DNA of 64,000 bases from Bacilli bacterium (lineage in GTDB: Bacteria > Bacillota_I > Bacilli_A > RF39 > UBA660), in NCBI GenBank assembly GCA_045541255.1, contig JAZQIU010000006.1, positions 43,663 to 107,662 on the forward strand, given 5' to 3'. Positions 2,697 through 22,336 of this stretch are shown here, piece after piece. Position 1 is the first letter of the stretch. Every line of letters begins with the position of its first letter. The notes below the pieces were generated by a model. The model was given only the letters and a program-made list of their open reading frames with translations, did not search any database and was not told the DNA's origin. Made by a program: the position numbers and the translations under genes.

Positions 2697-4607
2697 TTGA
2701 AAAAAATTAAATTTGGTTTTAAATTATGTATATTTGCTTTAATCTCTTTTATTGTATGCATGAGTTGTTTATATGTTTATGCATATTTATCTGGTGGAAT
2801 AGATATTAAAACTAGCAATTCATTTTATATATATGATAATAAGGAAGAATTAGTATATCAAGGTTCAGGTAATAGTGAATGGGTGGATTTGGAAGATGTT
2901 AGTCCTTATTTTTTGGATGCTATTGTAAGTACTGAAGATAAGTATTTTTATAAACATATGGGTTTTGATTATTTAAGAATTGCAAAATCTCTTTATACTA
3001 ATATTAAAAATGGTTATATTTCTCAGGGTGGTAGTACTATAAGTCAACAATATGTTAAGAATATGTATTTAGACTTTGATAAAACATGGTCTAGAAAAAT
3101 ACAAGAAGCTTTTTTAACTTTAAAATTAGAAACACATTATAGTAAAGAAGATATTTTAGAGGGTTATATAAATACTATTAATTTTGGTCAAGGTTGTTAT
3201 GGAGTTAGTGAAGCAAGTAAGTATTATTTTAATAAGAGTGCTAGTGAACTTAGTTTAGAAGAAGCTATTATTCTTGCTGGTATACCTAAAGCTCCTAATA
3301 CTTATAATCCAGTAGCAAATTATGAAAAAGCTGTTAAAAGAGGAAAGATTGTTGCTGAATGTATGTTAAATAATGAAAAAATAGATAGAAATACATATGA
3401 TAATTTATTTAAAACTACTTTAACTATTCATGGGAAAAGTGATTTAAATAATTTACAAACTCTTATGTATTATCAGGATGCTGTTATGAATGAGTTAGAA
3501 TCTTTACATGGTATTCCTAGTAGTTTAATAGAATCTGGTGGTTTAAAAATATATACTAATTTAGATATTGATTCTCAAACTAAATTAGAAAAATCAATTA
3601 TAGATAATATGCAAGATGATGAGATACAAGTAGCAAGTGTTATTGTTGAACCAAGTAGCGGAAAGATTATGGCATTAGCAGGTGGTAAAGATTATAAAAC
3701 TAGTCAATATAATCGTGTTACTAGCGCTAAAAGACAAGTAGGTTCAACTATTAAACCTTTCCTTTATTATGCTGCATTAGAAAATAACATGACTAGTGCT
3801 TCAACTTTCTTAAGTGAAAAAACTGATTTTGTTTTTTCTAATAGTCAAACTTATAGTCCAACAAATTATGCCGATAAGTATGCAAATACTGATATTACTA
3901 TGGCTGCTGCTTTAGCATACTCTGACAATGTATATGCAGTTAAAACACATTTATTTTTAGGAGAAGAAACTTTAGTTGAAACTATGAAAACAGTTGGTTT
4001 AGAAGAAGAATTAGAAGCGATACCATCATTAGCATTAGGTAGTAAAGAAATTAATATGTTAGATTATGCAGTTGCATATAATACACTAGCAAGTGGCGGT
4101 TTTAAACAGGATGTTTATTTGATAGATAGAGTTGAAGATTTACATGGTAATGTTTTATATCAACATAAACAAAAAAGAGAATTAGTTTTAAATACTAATT
4201 ATCTATATATTTTGAATGAGATGATGAGTAATACATATAATGAAAATTTTATTAGTTATAACTCTCCTACTGCCTTATCTATTAAAAATAAATTAACTAA
4301 AAAATATGCGATTAAAAGTGGTTCAACAAATAATGATTATTGGTTAGTAGGTTATAATCCTGATGTTATGATGATGGTTTGGACTGGTGAAGATAATAAT
4401 AAGGATGTTGAATCTAATTATTCTAAAATAACGAAAAATATATGGGCTGATACAGTAGAAAGTATATTAGAAGGAAAAGAAGAAACATGGTATAATCAAC
4501 CACAAAATGTAGATGCTGTATATTTGGATGCAGTAACTGGTGAATATACCACTCAAGATAATGGTTCTTTATTTTATTTTTTGAAAGGCACGGAGCCTGT
4601 AAATTAA
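2697..4607 (+). CDS. Class A bifunctional penicillin-binding protein (GT51 transglycosylase plus transpeptidase), TTG start.
   Basis: N-terminal TM helix; GT51 motifs EDKYFYKHMGFD and QGGSTISQQ; transpeptidase SxxK (STIKP). RBS AGGTGA 7 nt upstream of TTG at 2697. Confidence 0.8.
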   Translation: MKKIKFGFKLCIFALISFIVCMSCLYVYAYLSGGIDIKTSNSFYIYDNKEELVYQGSGNSEWVDLEDVSPYFLDAIVSTEDKYFYKHMGFDYLRIAKSLYTNIKNGYISQGGSTISQQYVKNMYLDFDKTWSRKIQEAFLTLKLETHYSKEDILEGYINTINFGQGCYGVSEASKYYFNKSASELSLEEAIILAGIPKAPNTYNPVANYEKAVKRGKIVAECMLNNEKIDRNTYDNLFKTTLTIHGKSDLNNLQTLMYYQDAVMNELESLHGIPSSLIESGGLKIYTNLDIDSQTKLEKSIIDNMQDDEIQVASVIVEPSSGKIMALAGGKDYKTSQYNRVTSAKRQVGSTIKPFLYYAALENNMTSASTFLSEKTDFVFSNSQTYSPTNYADKYANTDITMAAALAYSDNVYAVKTHLFLGEETLVETMKTVGLEEELEAIPSLALGSKEINMLDYAVAYNTLASGGFKQDVYLIDRVEDLHGNVLYQHKQKRELVLNTNYLYILNEMMSNTYNENFISYNSPTALSIKNKLTKKYAIKSGSTNNDYWLVGYNPDVMMMVWTGEDNNKDVESNYSKITKNIWADTVESILEGKEETWYNQPQNVDAVYLDAVTGEYTTQDNGSLFYFLKGTEPVN

Positions 4608-4610
4608 AAA

Positions 4611-4640
4611 AATTAACATATAATGTTAATTTTTATTTTT
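4611..4640. terminator. Bidirectional rho-independent terminator between convergent genes.
   Basis: Hairpin attaacat/atgttaat followed by TTTTATTTTT; the complement gives a T-rich run for the minus-strand gene. Confidence 0.45.
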
Positions 4641-5781
4641 CAAAGATAATTTTTGCTCCACTCTCTAACTCAATGTCTTTTATATAATTATATACATCTT
4701 TATTTGGGTTTAAATTAATATTCTTCACTTTATCAAAAACCTCTAATGTTTTTATAGTTGTTATATCATTAATTTTATTTCTATCAATCACATATAAATT
4801 ATTTTTATCATCTATAATTAATTCAAAACTCTTATCATCATTATAAGAAGCATAATCTTTAGAAACTTTTAAATAATATTTTACTTTTATATTAGAATTA
4901 TTATTTCTTACATTTTGTAAAATACCATCATAATTAATATTTATTATATCATCATAAGGATTGCATGTATTATCTAGTCTATTAATATAATTAAGATTTT
5001 CATCATCATAATAAGATTTTACAAATTTTTCTACTTCAATCAATTTGTTGTTAGTTAAAACAAAAATATTTTTTCCAATTTCAAAATAAATAAGAGTTTG
5101 TGCATCACAATCGACAGGATAATTAACAAATTTAATATTAATTATTGGTTCTAAATTTTTAATTTTGTTATATTCATAACTATTATATATTTCATTAGTT
5201 AATATATATTCATTATTATCATTATTCTTAGTAAATTCATTTCCCACTATTATTCGATATATATTATTATCACTAGTCACAACTACAAATGATTCTATCA
5301 ACTCTTCAAAAGAATCAATATAAAACATTTTAACATCATTTGTAATCTTTTTATCATATATCCATTCTCCAGAAATATTCCATAATAATTTATTATTTTC
5401 TATTTTTACAAAATTATATGGTTTAAATTTTTTGTTGCTATCTTCATTTAATTTAAATTTATTATATAAACTACACCCCTCTTCAAAGCATAAATACTCA
5501 TCATCATTATAATCTTTCATAGTAAAATATTTATTGTATAAATATTCATAATCCCATAAAATTTGATAATAATTTGACATATCATTTGGTAATAAATCAT
5601 TAATTAATGATTCTTCTATCTTTAAAATGGTAGTAGTTGTTGTAGTGTTATCATAATTAGGAGCTGTTTTATCCACTTTTAAAAAGTTATCATAAACTAC
5701 ATATCCAATTATTCCTAATACTAAAACTATTATTATTATAATTATCCAAATTAAACTTTTATTTTTGTTCTTTTCTTCCAT
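4633..5781 (-). CDS. Hypothetical membrane-anchored surface protein (382 aa). N-terminal signal-anchor, then an N/Y/K/D-rich extracytoplasmic domain.
   Basis: MEEKNKNKSLIWIIIIIIVLVLGIIGYVV TM segment; Thr-run linker; RBS GGAGAG 5 nt upstream of ATG (5779-5781). No homology recognised. Confidence 0.5.
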   Translation of the reverse strand: MEEKNKNKSLIWIIIIIIVLVLGIIGYVVYDNFLKVDKTAPNYDNTTTTTTILKIEESLINDLLPNDMSNYYQILWDYEYLYNKYFTMKDYNDDEYLCFEEGCSLYNKFKLNEDSNKKFKPYNFVKIENNKLLWNISGEWIYDKKITNDVKMFYIDSFEELIESFVVVTSDNNIYRIIVGNEFTKNNDNNEYILTNEIYNSYEYNKIKNLEPIINIKFVNYPVDCDAQTLIYFEIGKNIFVLTNNKLIEVEKFVKSYYDDENLNYINRLDNTCNPYDDIININYDGILQNVRNNNSNIKVKYYLKVSKDYASYNDDKSFELIIDDKNNLYVIDRNKINDITTIKTLEVFDKVKNINLNPNKDVYNYIKDIELESGAKIIFEK

Positions 5782-5862
5782 ATTTACTCTCCATTCTATG
5801 AATTTATATTACCATAAATATATTTTTAATAACATGAATTGTCAGTGTTATATTTTATTTAG

Positions 5863-5891
5863 ATTATCCCCCCCCCGAATATTTTTGTCAA
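5863..5891 (-). promoter_or_regulatory. Sigma-A-type promoter for the surface-protein gene, with the G9 tract inside the spacer.
   Basis: Minus strand reads TTGACA (5891-5886), then 17 nt (aaaatattc plus G8), then GATAAT (5868-5863). Start codon is ~80 nt downstream. Confidence 0.5.
5868..5876. repeat. C9 homopolymer (G9 on the minus strand) in a ~25% GC genome.
   Basis: Read directly: agattatCCCCCCCCCgaatat. It is the only G/C run of 6 or more that I could find in the window. Confidence 0.9.
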
Positions 5892-5894
5892 ATA

Positions 5895-5930
5895 AAAAAA
5901 GAGTTGTTATAATTTAACAATTCTTTTATT
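5895..5930 (-). terminator. parB terminator (palindromic, can act on both strands).
   Basis: Minus-strand hairpin aagaattgtta/taacaactctt followed by TTTTTTTATTT, immediately after the parB stop. Confidence 0.45.
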
Positions 5931-6945
5931 TTTCTATTTTAATAATTATTTGATATAAATCTTCAAAGTCGTAATCTTCAGTTTCTATTTGGAAACCAGC
6001 ATCTTTGATTTCTGTTTCTATATCTTTTAGAGAATTAATAACTGAGTTTAAATCTCCTGAAATTATTCTTTTTTTAGTTTCTTTTACTTCTTCTTTTGGT
6101 TCTTCTATATCTTCTATTTTAAATTCTTCAGCTGTAGGAATATCAAATATTTCATATTTATCTTGTAGTGTTTTTTTAGAATCTATTATTAATTGTGCTA
6201 TATCATCATTTTCTACAGTTGGTTCATTGTTATTAAAATCTAATGTTTCTATTTGATTTAATAAATTTTTATTTGTATCATTGTTTAATATATCAAATCT
6301 AGATGATGTTCCTGTTGATTCTGTAGATTCTGTTTCTTTATTTAAAACCTTTTTAATTTCAGCATCTAATTGTCTTACTGTATATCTATTATCAATAATT
6401 TTATTTAACATATTAATTTGATCATCTTTATCACTTAATTGTAATAAACTTCTTGCATGTCTTTCACTTATTTTTTCATTCATTAAGGCATCTTGAACTT
6501 CTTCAGTTAAGTTTAATAATCTTACTTTATTTGCTACTGAAGATTGAGATATACCTAATCTTTTTGCTAAAACTTCTTGAGTTAAATATCCTCTATCTAA
6601 TAATTTCTTATATGATTTTGCTTCTTCTATTGCAGAAAGATTACGTCTTTGTAAGTTTTCTACTAACGCTACTTCAGCTGATGCGTTATCATCTAAGTCA
6701 GCAATAATTGCTGGAACTTGATTTAATCCTGCAATTTGACTTGCTTTATATCTTCTTTCTCCTGCTATTATTTCAAATTTATCATTTGCTAATTTTCTTA
6801 ATACTAATGGTTGAATTATTCCGTGTTCTTTAATAGACATCGCTAACTCTTTTAATGCGTTTTCATCAAATGTTAATCTTGGTTGAAATCTATTTGGAAT
6901 AATACTTTCTACATTTATATATTGAACGTTTGGTTCTAATTTCAT
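5926..6945 (-). CDS. parB: ParB/Spo0J-family partition protein (339 aa). No adjacent parA/soj.
   Basis: ParB N-terminal box (PNRFQPR...GIIQPL...GERRYKAS), HTH (LTQEVLAKRLGISQSSVANKVRLL) and an acidic C-terminal region. It sits next to rsmG as in the Firmicute gidB-noc-soj-spo0J locus. Confidence 0.8.
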   Translation of the reverse strand: MKLEPNVQYINVESIIPNRFQPRLTFDENALKELAMSIKEHGIIQPLVLRKLANDKFEIIAGERRYKASQIAGLNQVPAIIADLDDNASAEVALVENLQRRNLSAIEEAKSYKKLLDRGYLTQEVLAKRLGISQSSVANKVRLLNLTEEVQDALMNEKISERHARSLLQLSDKDDQINMLNKIIDNRYTVRQLDAEIKKVLNKETESTESTGTSSRFDILNNDTNKNLLNQIETLDFNNNEPTVENDDIAQLIIDSKKTLQDKYEIFDIPTAEEFKIEDIEEPKEEVKETKKRIISGDLNSVINSLKDIETEIKDAGFQIETEDYDFEDLYQIIIKIEK

Positions 6946-7029
6946 AAGCCCCTACTCCTATTCTATATATAATAATACTTTATTTTGATCGAATTTTCAA
7001 TAGCAAAATAAAAAGAAACTCATTTAAAA

Positions 7030-7734
7030 TTATAATGGTTTCTTTAGTATTTGATTATATTGTCTAGGATATTTTTTATCTGTATTTTTAATTTTTTTGA
7101 TTAATATAAAGTTTCTAATACCTTCATTGTTTGGGAGATTTATATTTTTAGTAGTTAAGTATTCTCCACCCAATATATTTATTCCTTTTAGGCTATTGTT
7201 TAATTCTTCTTCATAGTCAGCTTTCATTGCTATAAATTGTCCGTTAATACTAACGAATGGAATAGATAATTCTATCAATACCGGAAGATTCTTTACTGCT
7301 CTTGCAGTTACTAAATCATAGTATTCTCTTCTTTCGTTGATAAATTCTTCTGCTCTATTGTTAATAACTTCTACGTTTTCAACATTTAAAATATCAATTA
7401 GATTTTTACAAAATGTTGTTTTTTTATTATTTGAATCTAATAAAGTTAATTTGATATGAGGAAAAACTATTTTTAAAACTAATCCTGGGAATCCAGCTCC
7501 GCATCCTATATCTAACATATTTTCTATATTATTAAAGTCTATTGTTTGAGATAAAAGTATAGAATCATAAAAATGTTTTAAATATACACTTTCTTTATCA
7601 GTTATAGATGTTACATTAGTATGTGAATTATATTCTACTAAATAATCATAATATTTTAATAGTTGTTGTTTTTGAATTTCAGTTAATTTGATATTTAACT
7701 TTTCTAATTCTTTATAAAATTCTAATTCATTCAT
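7030..7734 (-). CDS. rsmG: 16S rRNA (guanine527-N7)-methyltransferase RsmG (GidB).
   Basis: AdoMet fold motif DIGCGAGFPG; conserved position downstream of mnmG. Confidence 0.85.
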   Translation of the reverse strand: MNELEFYKELEKLNIKLTEIQKQQLLKYYDYLVEYNSHTNVTSITDKESVYLKHFYDSILLSQTIDFNNIENMLDIGCGAGFPGLVLKIVFPHIKLTLLDSNNKKTTFCKNLIDILNVENVEVINNRAEEFINERREYYDLVTARAVKNLPVLIELSIPFVSINGQFIAMKADYEEELNNSLKGINILGGEYLTTKNINLPNNEGIRNFILIKKIKNTDKKYPRQYNQILKKPL

Positions 7735-13269: not shown

Positions 13270-13400
13270 ACGTTGATATGTGGAAAAAATATTAACCTGT
13301 TAATAACAATTTGTGGAAAATGTGGAAAAGTGATGTTTTCTCTTTATTTAAGGGTATTTAAATGTTTATAACTATGTGGAAATGTTGTGGAAATTAAAAA
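13270..13400. promoter_or_regulatory. oriC upstream DnaA-box cluster (rpmH–dnaA intergenic region).
   Basis: Five TGTGGAAAW motifs (the complement of the low-GC DnaA box TTTTCCACA) at 13278, 13312, 13321, 13375 and 13386, in an AT-rich 300-bp spacer. Confidence 0.6.
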
Positions 13401-16733: not shown

Positions 16734-17828
16734 ATGGAAATTACATCTTTGAAGTTATTTAATTTTAGAAATTTTGATACTTTAGAGTTAAATTTTTCTC
16801 CAAATAAAAATATTATCATAGGTAATAATGGAATGGGAAAGACAAATATTGTTGAAGCAATATTTGTTTTAGGCTTAACTAAGTCTTTTAGAACTAATGA
16901 TGATAATATTTTAGTTAAAGAAAATAATACTTTATATAAAATTGAAGGTAATGTTAAATCTTCTTTTGTTAACAATTATAAAATTGTATATCAAGATGGT
17001 GTTAAAGTAGTAAAAATAAATAATAATAAAATAAATAAATTTAGTGATTATATTTCAAATATTAATGTTATTTTATTTAGTTTAAATGATTTGAAATTAA
17101 TTAAGGATACTCCTAGTACTAGAAGAAAGTTGATTAACTTAGAAATATCTCAATTAAATAATGATTATATTAAATATTTAAATTATTATAATAAAATTTT
17201 GAAACAGAGAAATTCTTATTTAAAAACTTTATATAATGGAAGAATTAACTATGATTATATATCTATAATAGATAACCAATTAATAGATTATGGTTTAAAG
17301 ATTTATGAAATAAGAAAGAAATTTATTAATGAAGTTAATAAACTATTACCTAATATTTATAATAAGTTAGGTGGAAATAATGATTTAAATATTTATTATA
17401 AAAGTGATTATGAATCTAAAACATTGGATGATTTATTAAATATTTATAGAGAAACAGTTAATAAAGATATTAATTTTGGTTCTACTCAAATTGGAATACA
17501 TCGTGATGATTTTATATTTAGTATGAATAATCAAGAAATAAAGAATTTTGCGAGTGAAGGACAACAAAAAAATGCTGTAATATCTTTTAAATTAGCTGAA
17601 TTAGAGTTATTTAATGAAATTAATAAAGAATATCCAATATTAATATTAGATGATTTATTTAGTGAATTAGATATGAAAAAAGTTGAGAAAATTTTGAGTT
17701 ATATAAGTGATGATGTTCAAACATTTATTACTACAACTGATTTAAAAAAAGTTAAAAAGAGTTATCTAAAAAATAGTAAAGTGTTTAAAATAGATAATTC
17801 TGGTATAAAGGAGAGTTTGTATGAATGA
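16734..17828 (+). CDS. recF: DNA replication and repair protein RecF.
   Basis: Walker [10 protein letters not shown]; SMC-like signature; conserved position before gyrB. Confidence 0.9.
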
Positions 17829-19740
17829 ATATAATGATAGCGATATTCAAGTATTAGAAGGGTTAGAAGCGGTTAGAAAAAGACCTGGTATGTATATTGG
17901 TACAACTGATGTTAAAGGTTTACATCATCTAGTATGGGAAATTGTAGATAACTCTATAGATGAAGCTTTAGCTGGTTTTTGTAAAAATATAGAGATTATT
18001 ATTAATAAAGATAATTCTATTACTGTAAAAGATGATGGTCGTGGTATTCCAGTTGGTATTCATGCTAAAACTGGTATATCTACAGTAGAAACTGTTTATA
18101 CAGTTTTACATGCTGGTGGTAAATTTGGTGGTGGTGGATACAAAGTATCTGGAGGACTACATGGTGTTGGTGCCAGTGTTGTTAATGCTTTATCAAGATG
18201 GGTTACAGTAAGAGTTTATAAAGATGGTAAAATACATGAAACTCGTTTTGAAAATGGTGGGCATACTGTTCAAAAATTAGAAGTTATTGGTGAATGTGAT
18301 ATTAATAGAACAGGAACTACTGTAACATTTAAGCCAGATCCAGATATATTTGATACTGAAATATATGATTATGAAACTTTAAAAGTTAGAGTTAGAGAAT
18401 TAGCATTCTTAAATAAAGGTTTAAGACTAACATTAAGAGATGATAGAGATGAAGAGGATACTACTGGAGATAATTTCTTATATGAAGGTGGTATTGCTGA
18501 ATATGTAAGATTTTTAAATCAACATAAAACTCCTATTCACAATGAAATTATTCATTTAGAGGGAGAAGAAGCTGGTATTATCTTTGAAGTTGCAATGCAA
18601 TATAATTCTGGATATACAGACAATATTTATTCTTTTGTTAATAATATAAATACACATGATGGTGGAACACATGAAGAGGGTGTTAGAAGAGCATTAACTA
18701 GATTAGTTAATAATTATGCAAGAAAATCAAATATGTTAAAAGAAAAAGATGAATCTTTAACTGGTGAGGATGTTAAAGAAGGTTTAACTATGATAGTTTC
18801 TTGTAAACATCCAAATCCACAATTTGAAGGACAAACAAAAGGTAGATTAGGTAATAGTGAAGTAAGAAAACTAGCTGATAGTGTTTTTTCTAAAGGTTTT
18901 GATAGATTCTTGATGGAAAATCCAAACGAAGCTAAAATCATAGTAGAAAAGGCTATGTTAGCAAGTCGTGCAAGAAGTGCCGCTAAAAAAGCTCGTGAAA
19001 TTACAAGAAAAAGTGATTTATCAGTAAATAGTAATTTCTTTGGTAAATTAAGTGATTGTAAGAGTAAAGATGCAAAAGTTAGTGAAATATTTATAGTCGA
19101 AGGAGATAGTGCCGGTGGAAGTGCTAAAAAGGGTCGTGATTCAATGACTCAAGCTATCCTTCCATTAAGAGGTAAAATTTTAAATGTAGAAAAAACTAGA
19201 TTAGATAGAGCTTTAGGTAATGAAGAAATTAGAACTATTATTACAGCTTTTGGTACTGGAATTGGGCAAGAATTTGATTTATCTAAGTTAAGATATAATA
19301 AGATAATAATAATGACCGATGCCGATGTTGATGGCTCTCATATTAGAGTATTACTTTTAACGCTATTTTATAGGTTTTTTAGACCGATTGTTGAGAATGG
19401 GCATGTTTATGCAGCTCAACCTCCTTTATTCAGAATAATGCATGGAAAAACACGTAAATACGTATTAAATGAAGAAGAGAAAGAAAGATATTTAGCATCA
19501 TTACCAGAAAATGTTCGTGCTAGGGCGGAAATTGCTCGTATGAAAGGTCTAGGAGAAATGGATGCTGAAGAATTAAATGAAACAACAATGGATATTGAAA
19601 AGAGAATTTTAAGAAAAATTACTGTTGATGATTGTATGGCAGCAGATGCTGTATTTGCTAAACTTATGGGTGATGAAGTAGAACCTAGAAGAAGATTTAT
19701 AGAAGAAAATGCAGGCTACGTACAAAATTTAGATATTTAG
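17821..19740 (+). CDS. gyrB: DNA gyrase subunit B.
   Basis: GHKL ATPase and Toprim domains ([14 protein letters not shown]); 639 aa. Confidence 0.95.
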
Positions 19741-19753
19741 GAGGTGAATTGGT

Positions 19754-22336
19754 ATGAGAGAAAATGAAGAAAAGTTAGAAATTACTCAAGAAGAAAGCGA
19801 AATAATGGAAGAAATTATTGAAGCAGAAGAAACAGAAGCTAGTGAGGATGAAAGTAAGCCAAGTTTCAGTGGGTATTTTCACGAAAGAGATAGATTAGCA
19901 GAAAATAACATTGTTAATGAAGTTGAAACATCATTTTTAGAGTATTCTATGAGTGTTATTGCATCTCGTGCTTTACCTGATTTAAGAGATGGTTTAAAAC
20001 CTGTTCATAGAAGAATTTTATGGTCTATGTATGAATCTGGATATACACCTGATAAACCTCATAGAAAATCAGCTACAACAGTAGGATACGTTATGGGGCA
20101 TTACCATCCACATGGAGATTCTTCAATTTATGAAGCAATGGTAAGAATGGCACAAGATTTTAATCAACGTTATTTATTAGTTGATGGACATGGAAACTTT
20201 GGTAACATTGAAGGTGATGGAGCAGCAGCAATGCGTTATACAGAATCAAGATTATCTAAACTTTCATTAGAATTGTTAAGAGATATTAATAAAGATACTG
20301 TAGATTTTGATCCAAACTTCGATGAAACTCAAAAAGAACCTAAAGTTTTACCTTCCAGATATCCAAATATATTAGTTAATGGTACTATGGGTATAGCAGT
20401 TGGTATGGCAACAAATATTCCGCCTCATAATTTAGGAGAAGTTATTGATGGATGTGTTGCTTATATAGATGATCCTACAATTGATACATTAGGTTTAATG
20501 AATTATATAAAAGGACCAGATTTTCCAACTGGAGGTATTATTTTAGGTAATTCAGGTATAAAACAAGCATATGAAACTGGTAAAGGTTCTATAACAATAA
20601 GAAGTAGAGCAACTATAGAGGAAGTTAAAGGGCATCAATGTATTATAATTAATGAAGTTCCTTATGGTGTTAATACTATGGAATTAAAAAATAAAGTTGC
20701 TGAGTTAGTACATAATAAAATTATAGAAGGTATTAGTGATTATCATACAGATTTAAAAGATGGTGTAAAGATAACTATTACTTTAAAGAAAGATGCTAAT
20801 GCTCAAGTTGTATTAAATAATTTGTATAAACATACTAATTTTCAAACTTCTTTTGGTATAACACTATTAATGTTAGATGGTTTAACGCCTAAAACATTAG
20901 GTTTAAAGGATATTATTTCAAAATATATTGATCATCAAAAAGAAGTAATTATTAGAAGAACAAGATTTGATTTAAAGAAAAGTGAAAACAGAGTTCACAT
21001 ATTAGAAGGTTATAAAATAGCATTAGATAATATTGATGAAGTTATTAAAATTATTAAGGGAGCCGATACTGATCAAATAGCACGTGAGCAATTAATGAAA
21101 CGTTTTGGTTTAAGTCAAATTCAAGCTGATAGTATTTTAGAATTAAAATTACGTAGATTAACAGGTTTAGAAAGAAATAAGATAGAGGAAGAACTAAATA
21201 ATTTACTTAAATTAATTGAAGAATTAAAAGCTATTTTAGCTAGTGAACAAATGGTTCTAGATATTATTAAGAAAGAATTATTAGAAGTTAAGAATAAATT
21301 TGCAGATGAACGTAGAACTTCAATAGATATGACAGCAATTGATTATATTGAAGATGAATCTTTAATTCCTCAAGAAAATATAATAGTTACGTTAACAAAC
21401 AAAGGATATATCAAACGTTTGTCCGCTAATTCTTATAAAACTCAACATCGTGGTGGTGTAGGTGTAAAGGGAATGTCAACTAATGAAGAAGATTATGTCG
21501 ATCATATGATCAATTTATCAACCCACGACTATTTATTAATATTTACAAATAAAGGAAAAGTTTACAGAATGAAAGGTTATGAGATACCTGAGTTCAGTAG
21601 ACAAGCAAAGGGTTTACCTATCATAAACTTATTACAAGTTGAAAAAGATGAAGTTATCAACAGTCTAATTAAAATGTCACCAGAAGAAGAATCGAAGTAT
21701 TTAGTATTTGGTACTAAGAAAGGATTTATAAAAAAGACATTAATTAGCGAGTTTGAAAACATTAGAAATAGTGGTAAAATTTGTATTTCTTTAAGAAGCA
21801 ATGATGAATTAATAGGTGTAAAAAAATCTACTGGTTGTGACTATATAATGATGGCATCTACAGAAGGACGTATGGCAGTATTTAATGAAGATGAAATAAG
21901 AGTAATGGGTCGTACAGCTTCAGGAGTTAGAGGAATTAATTTAAATGACGCTGATTGTGTAGGATTAGAAGTAGTTACATTAAACGATAATATATTAATA
22001 GTAACTAGAAATGGTTATGGAAAGAAAACTCTTGTAAATGAATTTAGAACTACAAAACGTGGTAGTAAGGGTGTTAAAGCCTTAAACATTACAGAAAAAA
22101 ATGGTCCTTTAGTAGCATTTAAAATTATTGAAAAAGAACAAGATTTAATGATTATAACTAACTCTGGTATAATTATCAGGCTATCATTAGATCAAATTAG
22201 CCAACTAGGACGAGTTACACAAGGTGTTAGATTAATAAATTTAAAAGATAAACAAGTTGTTTCTACTATAAGTATTGTAGATAAAGAAGATGAAGAATCA
22301 GAAGAGTCAAAAGAAGAAGAGATTAATAATTATTAA
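19754..22336 (+). CDS. gyrA: DNA gyrase subunit A.
   Basis: AAMRYTE active-site region; GyrA box [10 protein letters not shown]; acidic C-terminal tail. Confidence 0.95.

Follow-up and report, generated by a model that had tools for sequence, protein, structure and literature searches.

A candidate phase-variable poly-G promoter upstream of a putative surface-protein gene in uncultivated low-GC Bacilli

Repeat tracts in the promoters of described systems

To our knowledge, most of the established contingency loci that are driven by repeats come from a few pathogens (Neisseria, Haemophilus, Campylobacter, Helicobacter and Mycoplasma), and the phase variation studied so far in gut commensals is almost entirely DNA inversion (Bacteroides, C. 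difficile). In Haemophilus influenzae hifA/hifB, promoter strength depends on how many dinucleotide repeats the spacer contains. The same is summarised for the TA repeats in the promoter spacer of Mycoplasma mycoides Vmm (Persson 2002, via PMC10502178), which, like the vlp genes of M. hyorhinis, acts through the length of that spacer (PMC10502178). In the vlp genes the repeat is a homopolymer, poly-A, which the same overview places in the promoter of each individual gene, between -35 and -10 (Citti & Wise 1995, via PMC10502178). Promoter-spacer tracts are also recorded for Neisseria porA (poly-G), fetA/frpB and opc (poly-C) (van der Ende 1995 and Carson 2000, both via PMC5320596); fetA and porA act through spacer length, and variation of the tract between strains serves as a criterion of candidacy (PMC5320596). 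In M. pulmonis vsa and M. agalactiae vpma, a conserved 5' expression module is joined to alternative 3' cassettes (PMC10502178, PMC2268961).

The locus described here lies in the window, by which we mean the whole 64-kb stretch of DNA analysed. We consider it fairly probable that its G9 tract is a hypermutable repeat (SSR) in the spacer of a sigma-A-type promoter that drives an accessory membrane-anchored protein, and that slippage in the tract alters the spacing and hence transcription. By analogy, the closest counterpart in function is M. hyorhinis vlp. As far as the overview cited above describes the vlp genes, both place a homopolymer in the promoter spacers of individual genes, and in both a conserved promoter and N-terminal membrane-targeting leader are fused to divergent parts that are surface-exposed in vlp and probably so here; a low-GC host of the Bacilli/Mollicutes radiation is a further likeness. 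The protein is nevertheless not a member of the Vlp family, since its leader looks like an uncleaved transmembrane anchor without lipobox cysteine and not like that of a lipoprotein, the tract is poly-G instead of poly-A, C-terminal tandem repeats for size variation are missing and there is no sequence homology. Moreover, the loci are dispersed here, whereas vlp forms a single cluster, and the host is cell-walled.

Neisseria porA, fetA and opc share with this locus a G/C homopolymer of 9-14 nt between -35 and -10 whose length differs among strains; according to the source cited for them, it makes the transcription of a surface protein graded ('volume control') or on/off, a likeness that we propose for the present tract. 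They differ in encoding Gram-negative outer-membrane proteins at single loci, without a shared portable promoter-leader module or exchange of ectodomain cassettes, and in having been verified experimentally, whereas the switch here is a candidate. Vmm and hifA/hifB also have a repeat in the spacer, but of dinucleotides and not a homopolymer. Finally, vsa and vpma resemble the locus in combining a promoter and leader module with alternative 3' coding cassettes; they rely, however, on site-specific DNA inversion within one genome, whereas the cassette differences seen here are between strains only, with no recombinase or flanking inverted repeats found.

The mechanism is classical, and what is new is the host lineage of uncultured, cell-walled gut Bacilli, the gene family and a portable poly-G promoter coupled to a leader beyond which ectodomains are exchanged. 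If the proposal is correct, SSR-based switching would extend to a new part of the microbiome (an uncultured Bacilli lineage), contingency-locus biology, known mainly from pathogens, would be operating in an uncultivated commensal, and the proteins on which phage or host immunity most likely exerts a fluctuating selection would be singled out. The signature TTGACAAAAATAxTC-Gn-TATAAT is readable directly from metagenomic reads, and the interest of the locus would grow if read-level heterogeneity and a genome-wide repertoire were confirmed.

The poly-G promoter and its surroundings

The initial annotation had pointed to a C9 run as the only long G/C homopolymer in the window, set in the 17-nt spacer of a consensus promoter ahead of an open reading frame with a good ribosome-binding site, and each of these points was borne out. 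The run (C9 at 5868-5876 of the + strand, G9 on the - strand) is the sole G/C run of at least 6 nt in the window, where GC content is 24.2% (on the + strand, C 9.2% and G 15.0%) and where chance would give 0.002 G/C runs of at least 9 nt if bases are independent and ~0.004 in a first-order Markov model. In a consensus scan, the top promoter match of the region was TTGACA (5891-5886), 17 nt, GATAAT (5868-5863) on the - strand, which agrees with the consensus at 11/12 positions. Only 10 sites of at least 11/12 exist in the whole window on both strands, and the chance of the unique run landing within the spacer of one of them is p ~0.001. One nuance is that the last G of the tract already belongs to the -10 hexamer, as its first base; the tract thus provides 8 spacer positions plus position -12 and occupies the 3' half of the spacer (5885-5869; AAAATATTC then G8). 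At nine residues the tract is within the length associated with slippage (~8 or more for G/C) and, at the sequence level, it sits between the -35 and -10 hexamers, as promoter-spacer tracts do.

On the - strand, the parB stop codon (5928-5926) is followed by a hairpin with T7 (5924-5894), the promoter directly after this terminator, a 70-nt leader region, the ribosome-binding site GGAGAG (5792-5787) and the ATG (5781) of the 382-aa frame (4633-5781). The promoter lies 82 nt upstream of this frame, and GGAGAG ends 5 nt before the ATG, with its GGAG core 7 nt away. The parB terminator folds at -8.1 kcal/mol (z = -2.4 against shuffled sequence), whereas folds of the 5' UTR, including the inverted repeat listed in Table 1, are no better than those of shuffled sequence, and an Rfam search of 5700-6000 gave no match.

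Table 1. Features of the locus, all on the - strand (positions in the window)
Feature	Position	Strand	Remarks
parB terminator, hairpin ~5924-5901 + T7 5900-5894	5894..5925	-	ends 2 nt before -35; kept in all parB-locus alleles
-35 hexamer TTGACA	5886..5891	-	invariant in 8/8 module copies at 3 loci
AT-rich 5' part of spacer, AAAATATTC	5877..5885	-	AAAATA[A/T/G]TC or AAATTAATC in other copies
Poly-G tract G9, candidate slippage site setting the -35/-10 spacing	5868..5876	-	unique; different in every allele
-10 hexamer GATAAT	5863..5868	-	TATAAT or TATATT in other alleles
Inverted repeat ATAACAC-N9-ATGTTAT in 5' UTR	5829..5851	-	kept in leader-gene copies
Second, weaker promoter-like site CTGACA, 17 nt, TATATT	5817..5845	-	10/12
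Ribosome-binding site GGAGAG	5787..5792	-	
Shared N-terminal leader: Lys-rich N-terminus, transmembrane helix, GYVVYDNFLKVDKTxPNYDN, start of Thr-rich linker	5641..5781	-	
382-aa open reading frame, ATG start, type-A ectodomain	4633..5781	-	
The gene's own terminator TTAACAT-TATA-TGTTAA + T7	4606..4629	-	abuts stop codon of convergent PBP1A gene
Whole accessory cassette: terminator, promoter, gene, terminator	4611..5925	-	absent in L029

The inverted repeat, in the form ATAACAC-N9-(G/A)TGTTAT, is kept just downstream of the -10 hexamer in the window, L001, L008, L013, L027 and L028, and it overlaps the -35 element of the second promoter-like site; its role may be that of an operator or of an RNA stem. 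On the opposite strand, a further site (5885-5913; TTGTCA, 17 nt, TATAAT with an upstream TG, 11/12) would transcribe antisense to parB. It shares the palindromic core of the -35 hexamer, its -10 falls inside the parB terminator hairpin, and it is probably a by-product of this AT-rich hairpin.

Other readings of the region were considered and rejected. A 50-aa frame on the + strand that runs over the C tract (5765-5917) would be frameshifted by each tract variant. A promoter of the MerR type, with a spacer of 19-20 bp, is contradicted by a spacer without dyad symmetry. An invertible promoter was discarded because neither flanking inverted repeats nor a recombinase was found: the best inverted-repeat pair (5877-5895 and 5946-5964) does not flank the promoter, as only the terminator lies between its arms and the proximal arm covers the -35 hexamer together with the 5' spacer, and no recombinase is present among the neighbouring genes.

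Tract alleles among strains and loci

The syntenic parB locus was taken from independent assemblies, which gave five alleles with the window included (Table 2). For ParB itself, about 35 variants of 95-99% identity are listed. Two checks proposed in the initial annotation, namely a comparison of the tract across strains and a search for similar tracts at paralogous genes, both came out positive. The tract is not invariant: 5/5 parB-locus alleles have different tracts, with spacers of 17-19 nt, within near-invariant flanks (variable columns, 5/11 in the tract vs 13/157 in the flanks; Fisher p = 0.0025). Between the window and L027, too, the differences are localised: from rsmG to the stop codon of the gene, similarity is lowest (91%) in the 100-bp block with the promoter. 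The promoter module TTGACA-AAAATAxTC-Gn-TATAAT, in turn, is found at two further loci, twice with G11 and once decayed, and x is A or G there. Together, the differences between strains and the module at these loci support, at the level of sequence, the earlier suggestion of a candidate phase-variable locus. The comparison sequences are all metagenome assemblies, some of low coverage (L010, ~3.6x), and single tract lengths or interruptions may contain errors. Uninterrupted tracts are those of SRR33013278 (G10), JAZLAK01 (G11) and ERZ15610166 (G11), besides the window, and interrupted ones those of ERZ28613621, ERZ27298615 and ERZ27302611. Two pattern scans were negative, that of JGI metagenomes with the gapped promoter pattern returning seven unrelated promoters and no tract, and that of viral contigs returning nothing.

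Table 2. Alleles of the poly-G promoter module
Allele	Locus	5' spacer prefix	Tract	-10	Spacer (nt)	Remarks
Window	parB	AAAATATTC	G9	(G)ATAAT	17	
L001 (Logan)	parB	AAAATAATC	G10	TATAAT	19	protein 93% identical
L027 (ENA)	parB	AAATTAATC	GGGGGGGTGG (G7TG2)	TATAAT	19	protein 99% identical
L028 (ENA)	parB	AAATTAATC	GGGGGAGGG (G5AG3)	TATAAT	18	
L008 (ENA)	parB	AAAATAATC	GGGGGGAGG (G6AG2)	TATATT	18	different gene body
L013 (MAG labelled SGB_4643)	2		G11		20	
L011 (same sample as L001)	2		AAGG		13	tract decayed
L010	3		G11		20	ahead of unrelated 185-aa membrane protein

Homopolymer lengths are error-prone, some of the assemblies have low coverage, and one Logan contig (L009) starts exactly at the TATAAT that follows the tract, all of which would fit a sequencing or assembly artefact (poly-G from two-colour chemistry, or a homopolymer miscall). 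Artefactual poly-G, however, sits at the ends of reads or contigs and is much longer, whereas the tract occupies the same position of a conserved promoter in seven independent assemblies (NCBI MAG, Logan and several from ENA), and the L009 break is equally explained by the module as a multi-copy repeat; an artefact is therefore a very remote prospect. As a multi-copy repeat that contains a homopolymer, the module seems to interrupt assemblies, and this combination is likely to leave those of these genomes broken or mis-sized.

Promoters of the sigma-70/sigma-A type are strongest with a spacer of 17 nt and weak with one of 19-20 nt, and we infer that this optimum applies to the tract promoter. 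Under the slippage model, slipped-strand mispairing at replication would add G residues to the tract or remove them and so change the distance from TTGACA to the -10 hexamer. The promoter would work at near full strength with 17 nt, as in the window, more weakly with 18 nt, and weakly or not at all with 19-20 nt. The optimal spacer is found only in the window allele; the other uninterrupted alleles (G10, G11 and G11) have spacers of 19-20 nt, 2-3 steps off the optimum, and would be OFF or low. If the tract switches frequently, lineages would differ, heritably yet reversibly, in whether and how strongly the protein is displayed. The dependence on spacing may be lessened by the G residues at -14 and -13, acting as a partial extended -10, and the second promoter-like site (5845-5817) could give a basal expression independent of the tract.

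A or T interrupts the tract in 3/5 parB-locus alleles, and such interruptions should reduce slippage, which suggests that many strains have a tract that is locked or in decay. The tract might accordingly be labile without being a selected switch, i.e. a slippery spacer that derives from a duplicated promoter module and is drifting or decaying, the differences between strains being fixed alleles. The complete loss of the tract in L011 agrees with this, as does the comparison of the window with L027, in which some of the promoter differences lie outside the tract (AAAATATTC vs AAATTAATC), a pattern that fits recombination between backgrounds better than slippage alone. What makes drift unlikely as the whole account is that uninterrupted tracts of G9-G11 persist at three loci in a genome of 24% GC where even G6 is rare, and which drift should erase quickly, and that the module is conserved ahead of non-homologous genes.

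The reading of the tract as a slippage-controlled spacer also depends on which promoter is used. The functional promoter might lie elsewhere, for instance at the CTGACA-17-TATATT site 46 nt downstream (5845-5817), in which case TTGACA and the G tract would serve upstream of it in regulation or insulation, for example as a protein-binding site or as a GC clamp behind the parB terminator. That downstream site scores 10/12, is conserved at the parB locus and in L013, and is overlapped by the inverted repeat; on the other hand, it is degenerate in L011 and absent in L010, whereas TTGACA is invariant in all copies, and the spacer lacks the dyad symmetry that an activator of the MerR type needs. In L010 (locus 3), the G-tract module is the only promoter-like element, with no second site, and stands ~40 nt from the ribosome-binding site of a different gene. 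This locus is, from its sequence, the best argument that the G-tract element would be a self-sufficient promoter and not an upstream appendage of a weaker downstream site, and it leaves a promoter elsewhere quite improbable.

Locus 2 is situated downstream of SpoIID, an M23 peptidase and a 117-aa gene. In L011 (5921-5965), the 5' UTR contains a 9-bp stem (ATTAGAATA/TATTCTAAT) followed by T8 that resembles a terminator or attenuator; none of the other copies has it.

Leader, ectodomain cassettes and host

The 382-aa product consists of a Lys-rich N-terminus, a transmembrane helix, a Thr-rich linker of low confidence or disordered, and an all-beta domain with a weak resemblance to a beta-propeller, as modelled with AF2 (mean pLDDT 71.5; helix at residues 6-33). 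From the N-terminal transmembrane helix, the linker and the all-beta domain of this model, the protein is probably membrane-anchored and extracytoplasmic or surface-located. Neither it nor five leader paralogues could be assigned to a significant family in searches of Pfam, PADLOC and PHROGs. Cysteine is absent from 7/7 aligned leaders, which are thus without lipobox, and TRF detected in the gene only weak low-complexity arrays (scores <=57), with no C-terminal tandem repeats.

The first ~45 residues (MEEKNKNKSLIWIII...GYVVYDNFLKVDKTxPNYDN-Thr-rich) have up to 93% identity across P0010-P0013 and precede unrelated C-terminal domains. An exhaustive search of representative proteins with a profile gave 309 matches, ~30 of them full-length relatives; among the 150 protein clusters listed from these 309, >100 match only profile positions ~1-55, and many of the leader-only matches are fragments of 40-110 aa. 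A word-indexed protein search with the leader alone returned 2 matches only.

This membrane-anchor leader stands on unrelated ectodomains at two of the three module loci. At the parB locus of L008, promoter and leader are kept and continue into a different protein of 259 aa, the DNA homology to the window ending at ~5655, and at locus 2 the ectodomains of L011 and L013 differ. In L029, the whole cassette is absent and a single 30-nt hairpin is in its place, next to a ParB protein identical to that of L027 and L028, which makes a clean presence/absence polymorphism beside the origin region. On these three sequence comparisons (the ectodomain swap in L008, the ectodomain differences at locus 2 and the missing cassette in L029), the gene appears to belong to the accessory set, to be exchangeable and to move between strains, as would be expected of a contingency locus.

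The window and L027 show 100% identity over the gene body of 900 bp (4638-5540 in the window), though their flanking rsmG and parB genes reach only 95-99%. The pattern points to an ectodomain cassette that was exchanged horizontally not long ago, with a breakpoint close to where the leader ends.

In the proposed system, the promoter would be a portable module present at three or more loci and coupled, at two of them, to the conserved leader, behind which ectodomains would be exchanged by recombination; tract promoter, leader and exchanged ectodomains would then form a contingency system for surface variation. A broader version, which we hold only tentatively and regard as somewhat doubtful, is that of a Vlp/vsa-like system in cell-walled gut Bacilli, in which the module of poly-G promoter and 45-aa leader would serve both as a slippage on/off switch and as a 5' homology anchor for the exchange of hundreds of unrelated ectodomains between loci and strains.

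Regarding the host, the genome had been described as 'Clostridia-like', where a mechanism known from Mycoplasma would not be expected. This was not confirmed: relatives with the same leader are deposited as uncultured Bacilli bacterium, Candidatus Onthocola, uncultured Tenericutes and uncultured Mycoplasma sp., and a Mycoplasma-like mechanism is consequently less out of place than it had seemed. The host is an uncultivated low-GC Bacilli lineage, not Clostridium, and is cell-walled, since it encodes PBP1A and SpoIID is encoded by a related contig (L011).

The locus is ~7.5 kb from the replication origin, in the gene order prfA, PBP1A (convergent), target gene, parB, rsmG, mnmG, mnmE, khpB/jag and yidC, after which come three TTTTCCACA DnaA-box-like sites (13279-13329) and then dnaA, dnaN and recF. 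Two large frames (17821-22336) lie where gyrB and gyrA usually do. The parB gene directly follows rsmG (5926-7734), and neither parA/soj nor noc occurs between the two or close by in the origin region.

In L010, a cluster of small membrane-protein genes (42-2695) includes two leader-type genes back to back, the second beginning 22 nt after the first and lacking a promoter of its own, followed by the G11 promoter with its 185-aa membrane protein and by a 129-aa DUF4190-like protein; this cluster may be a surface-protein island.
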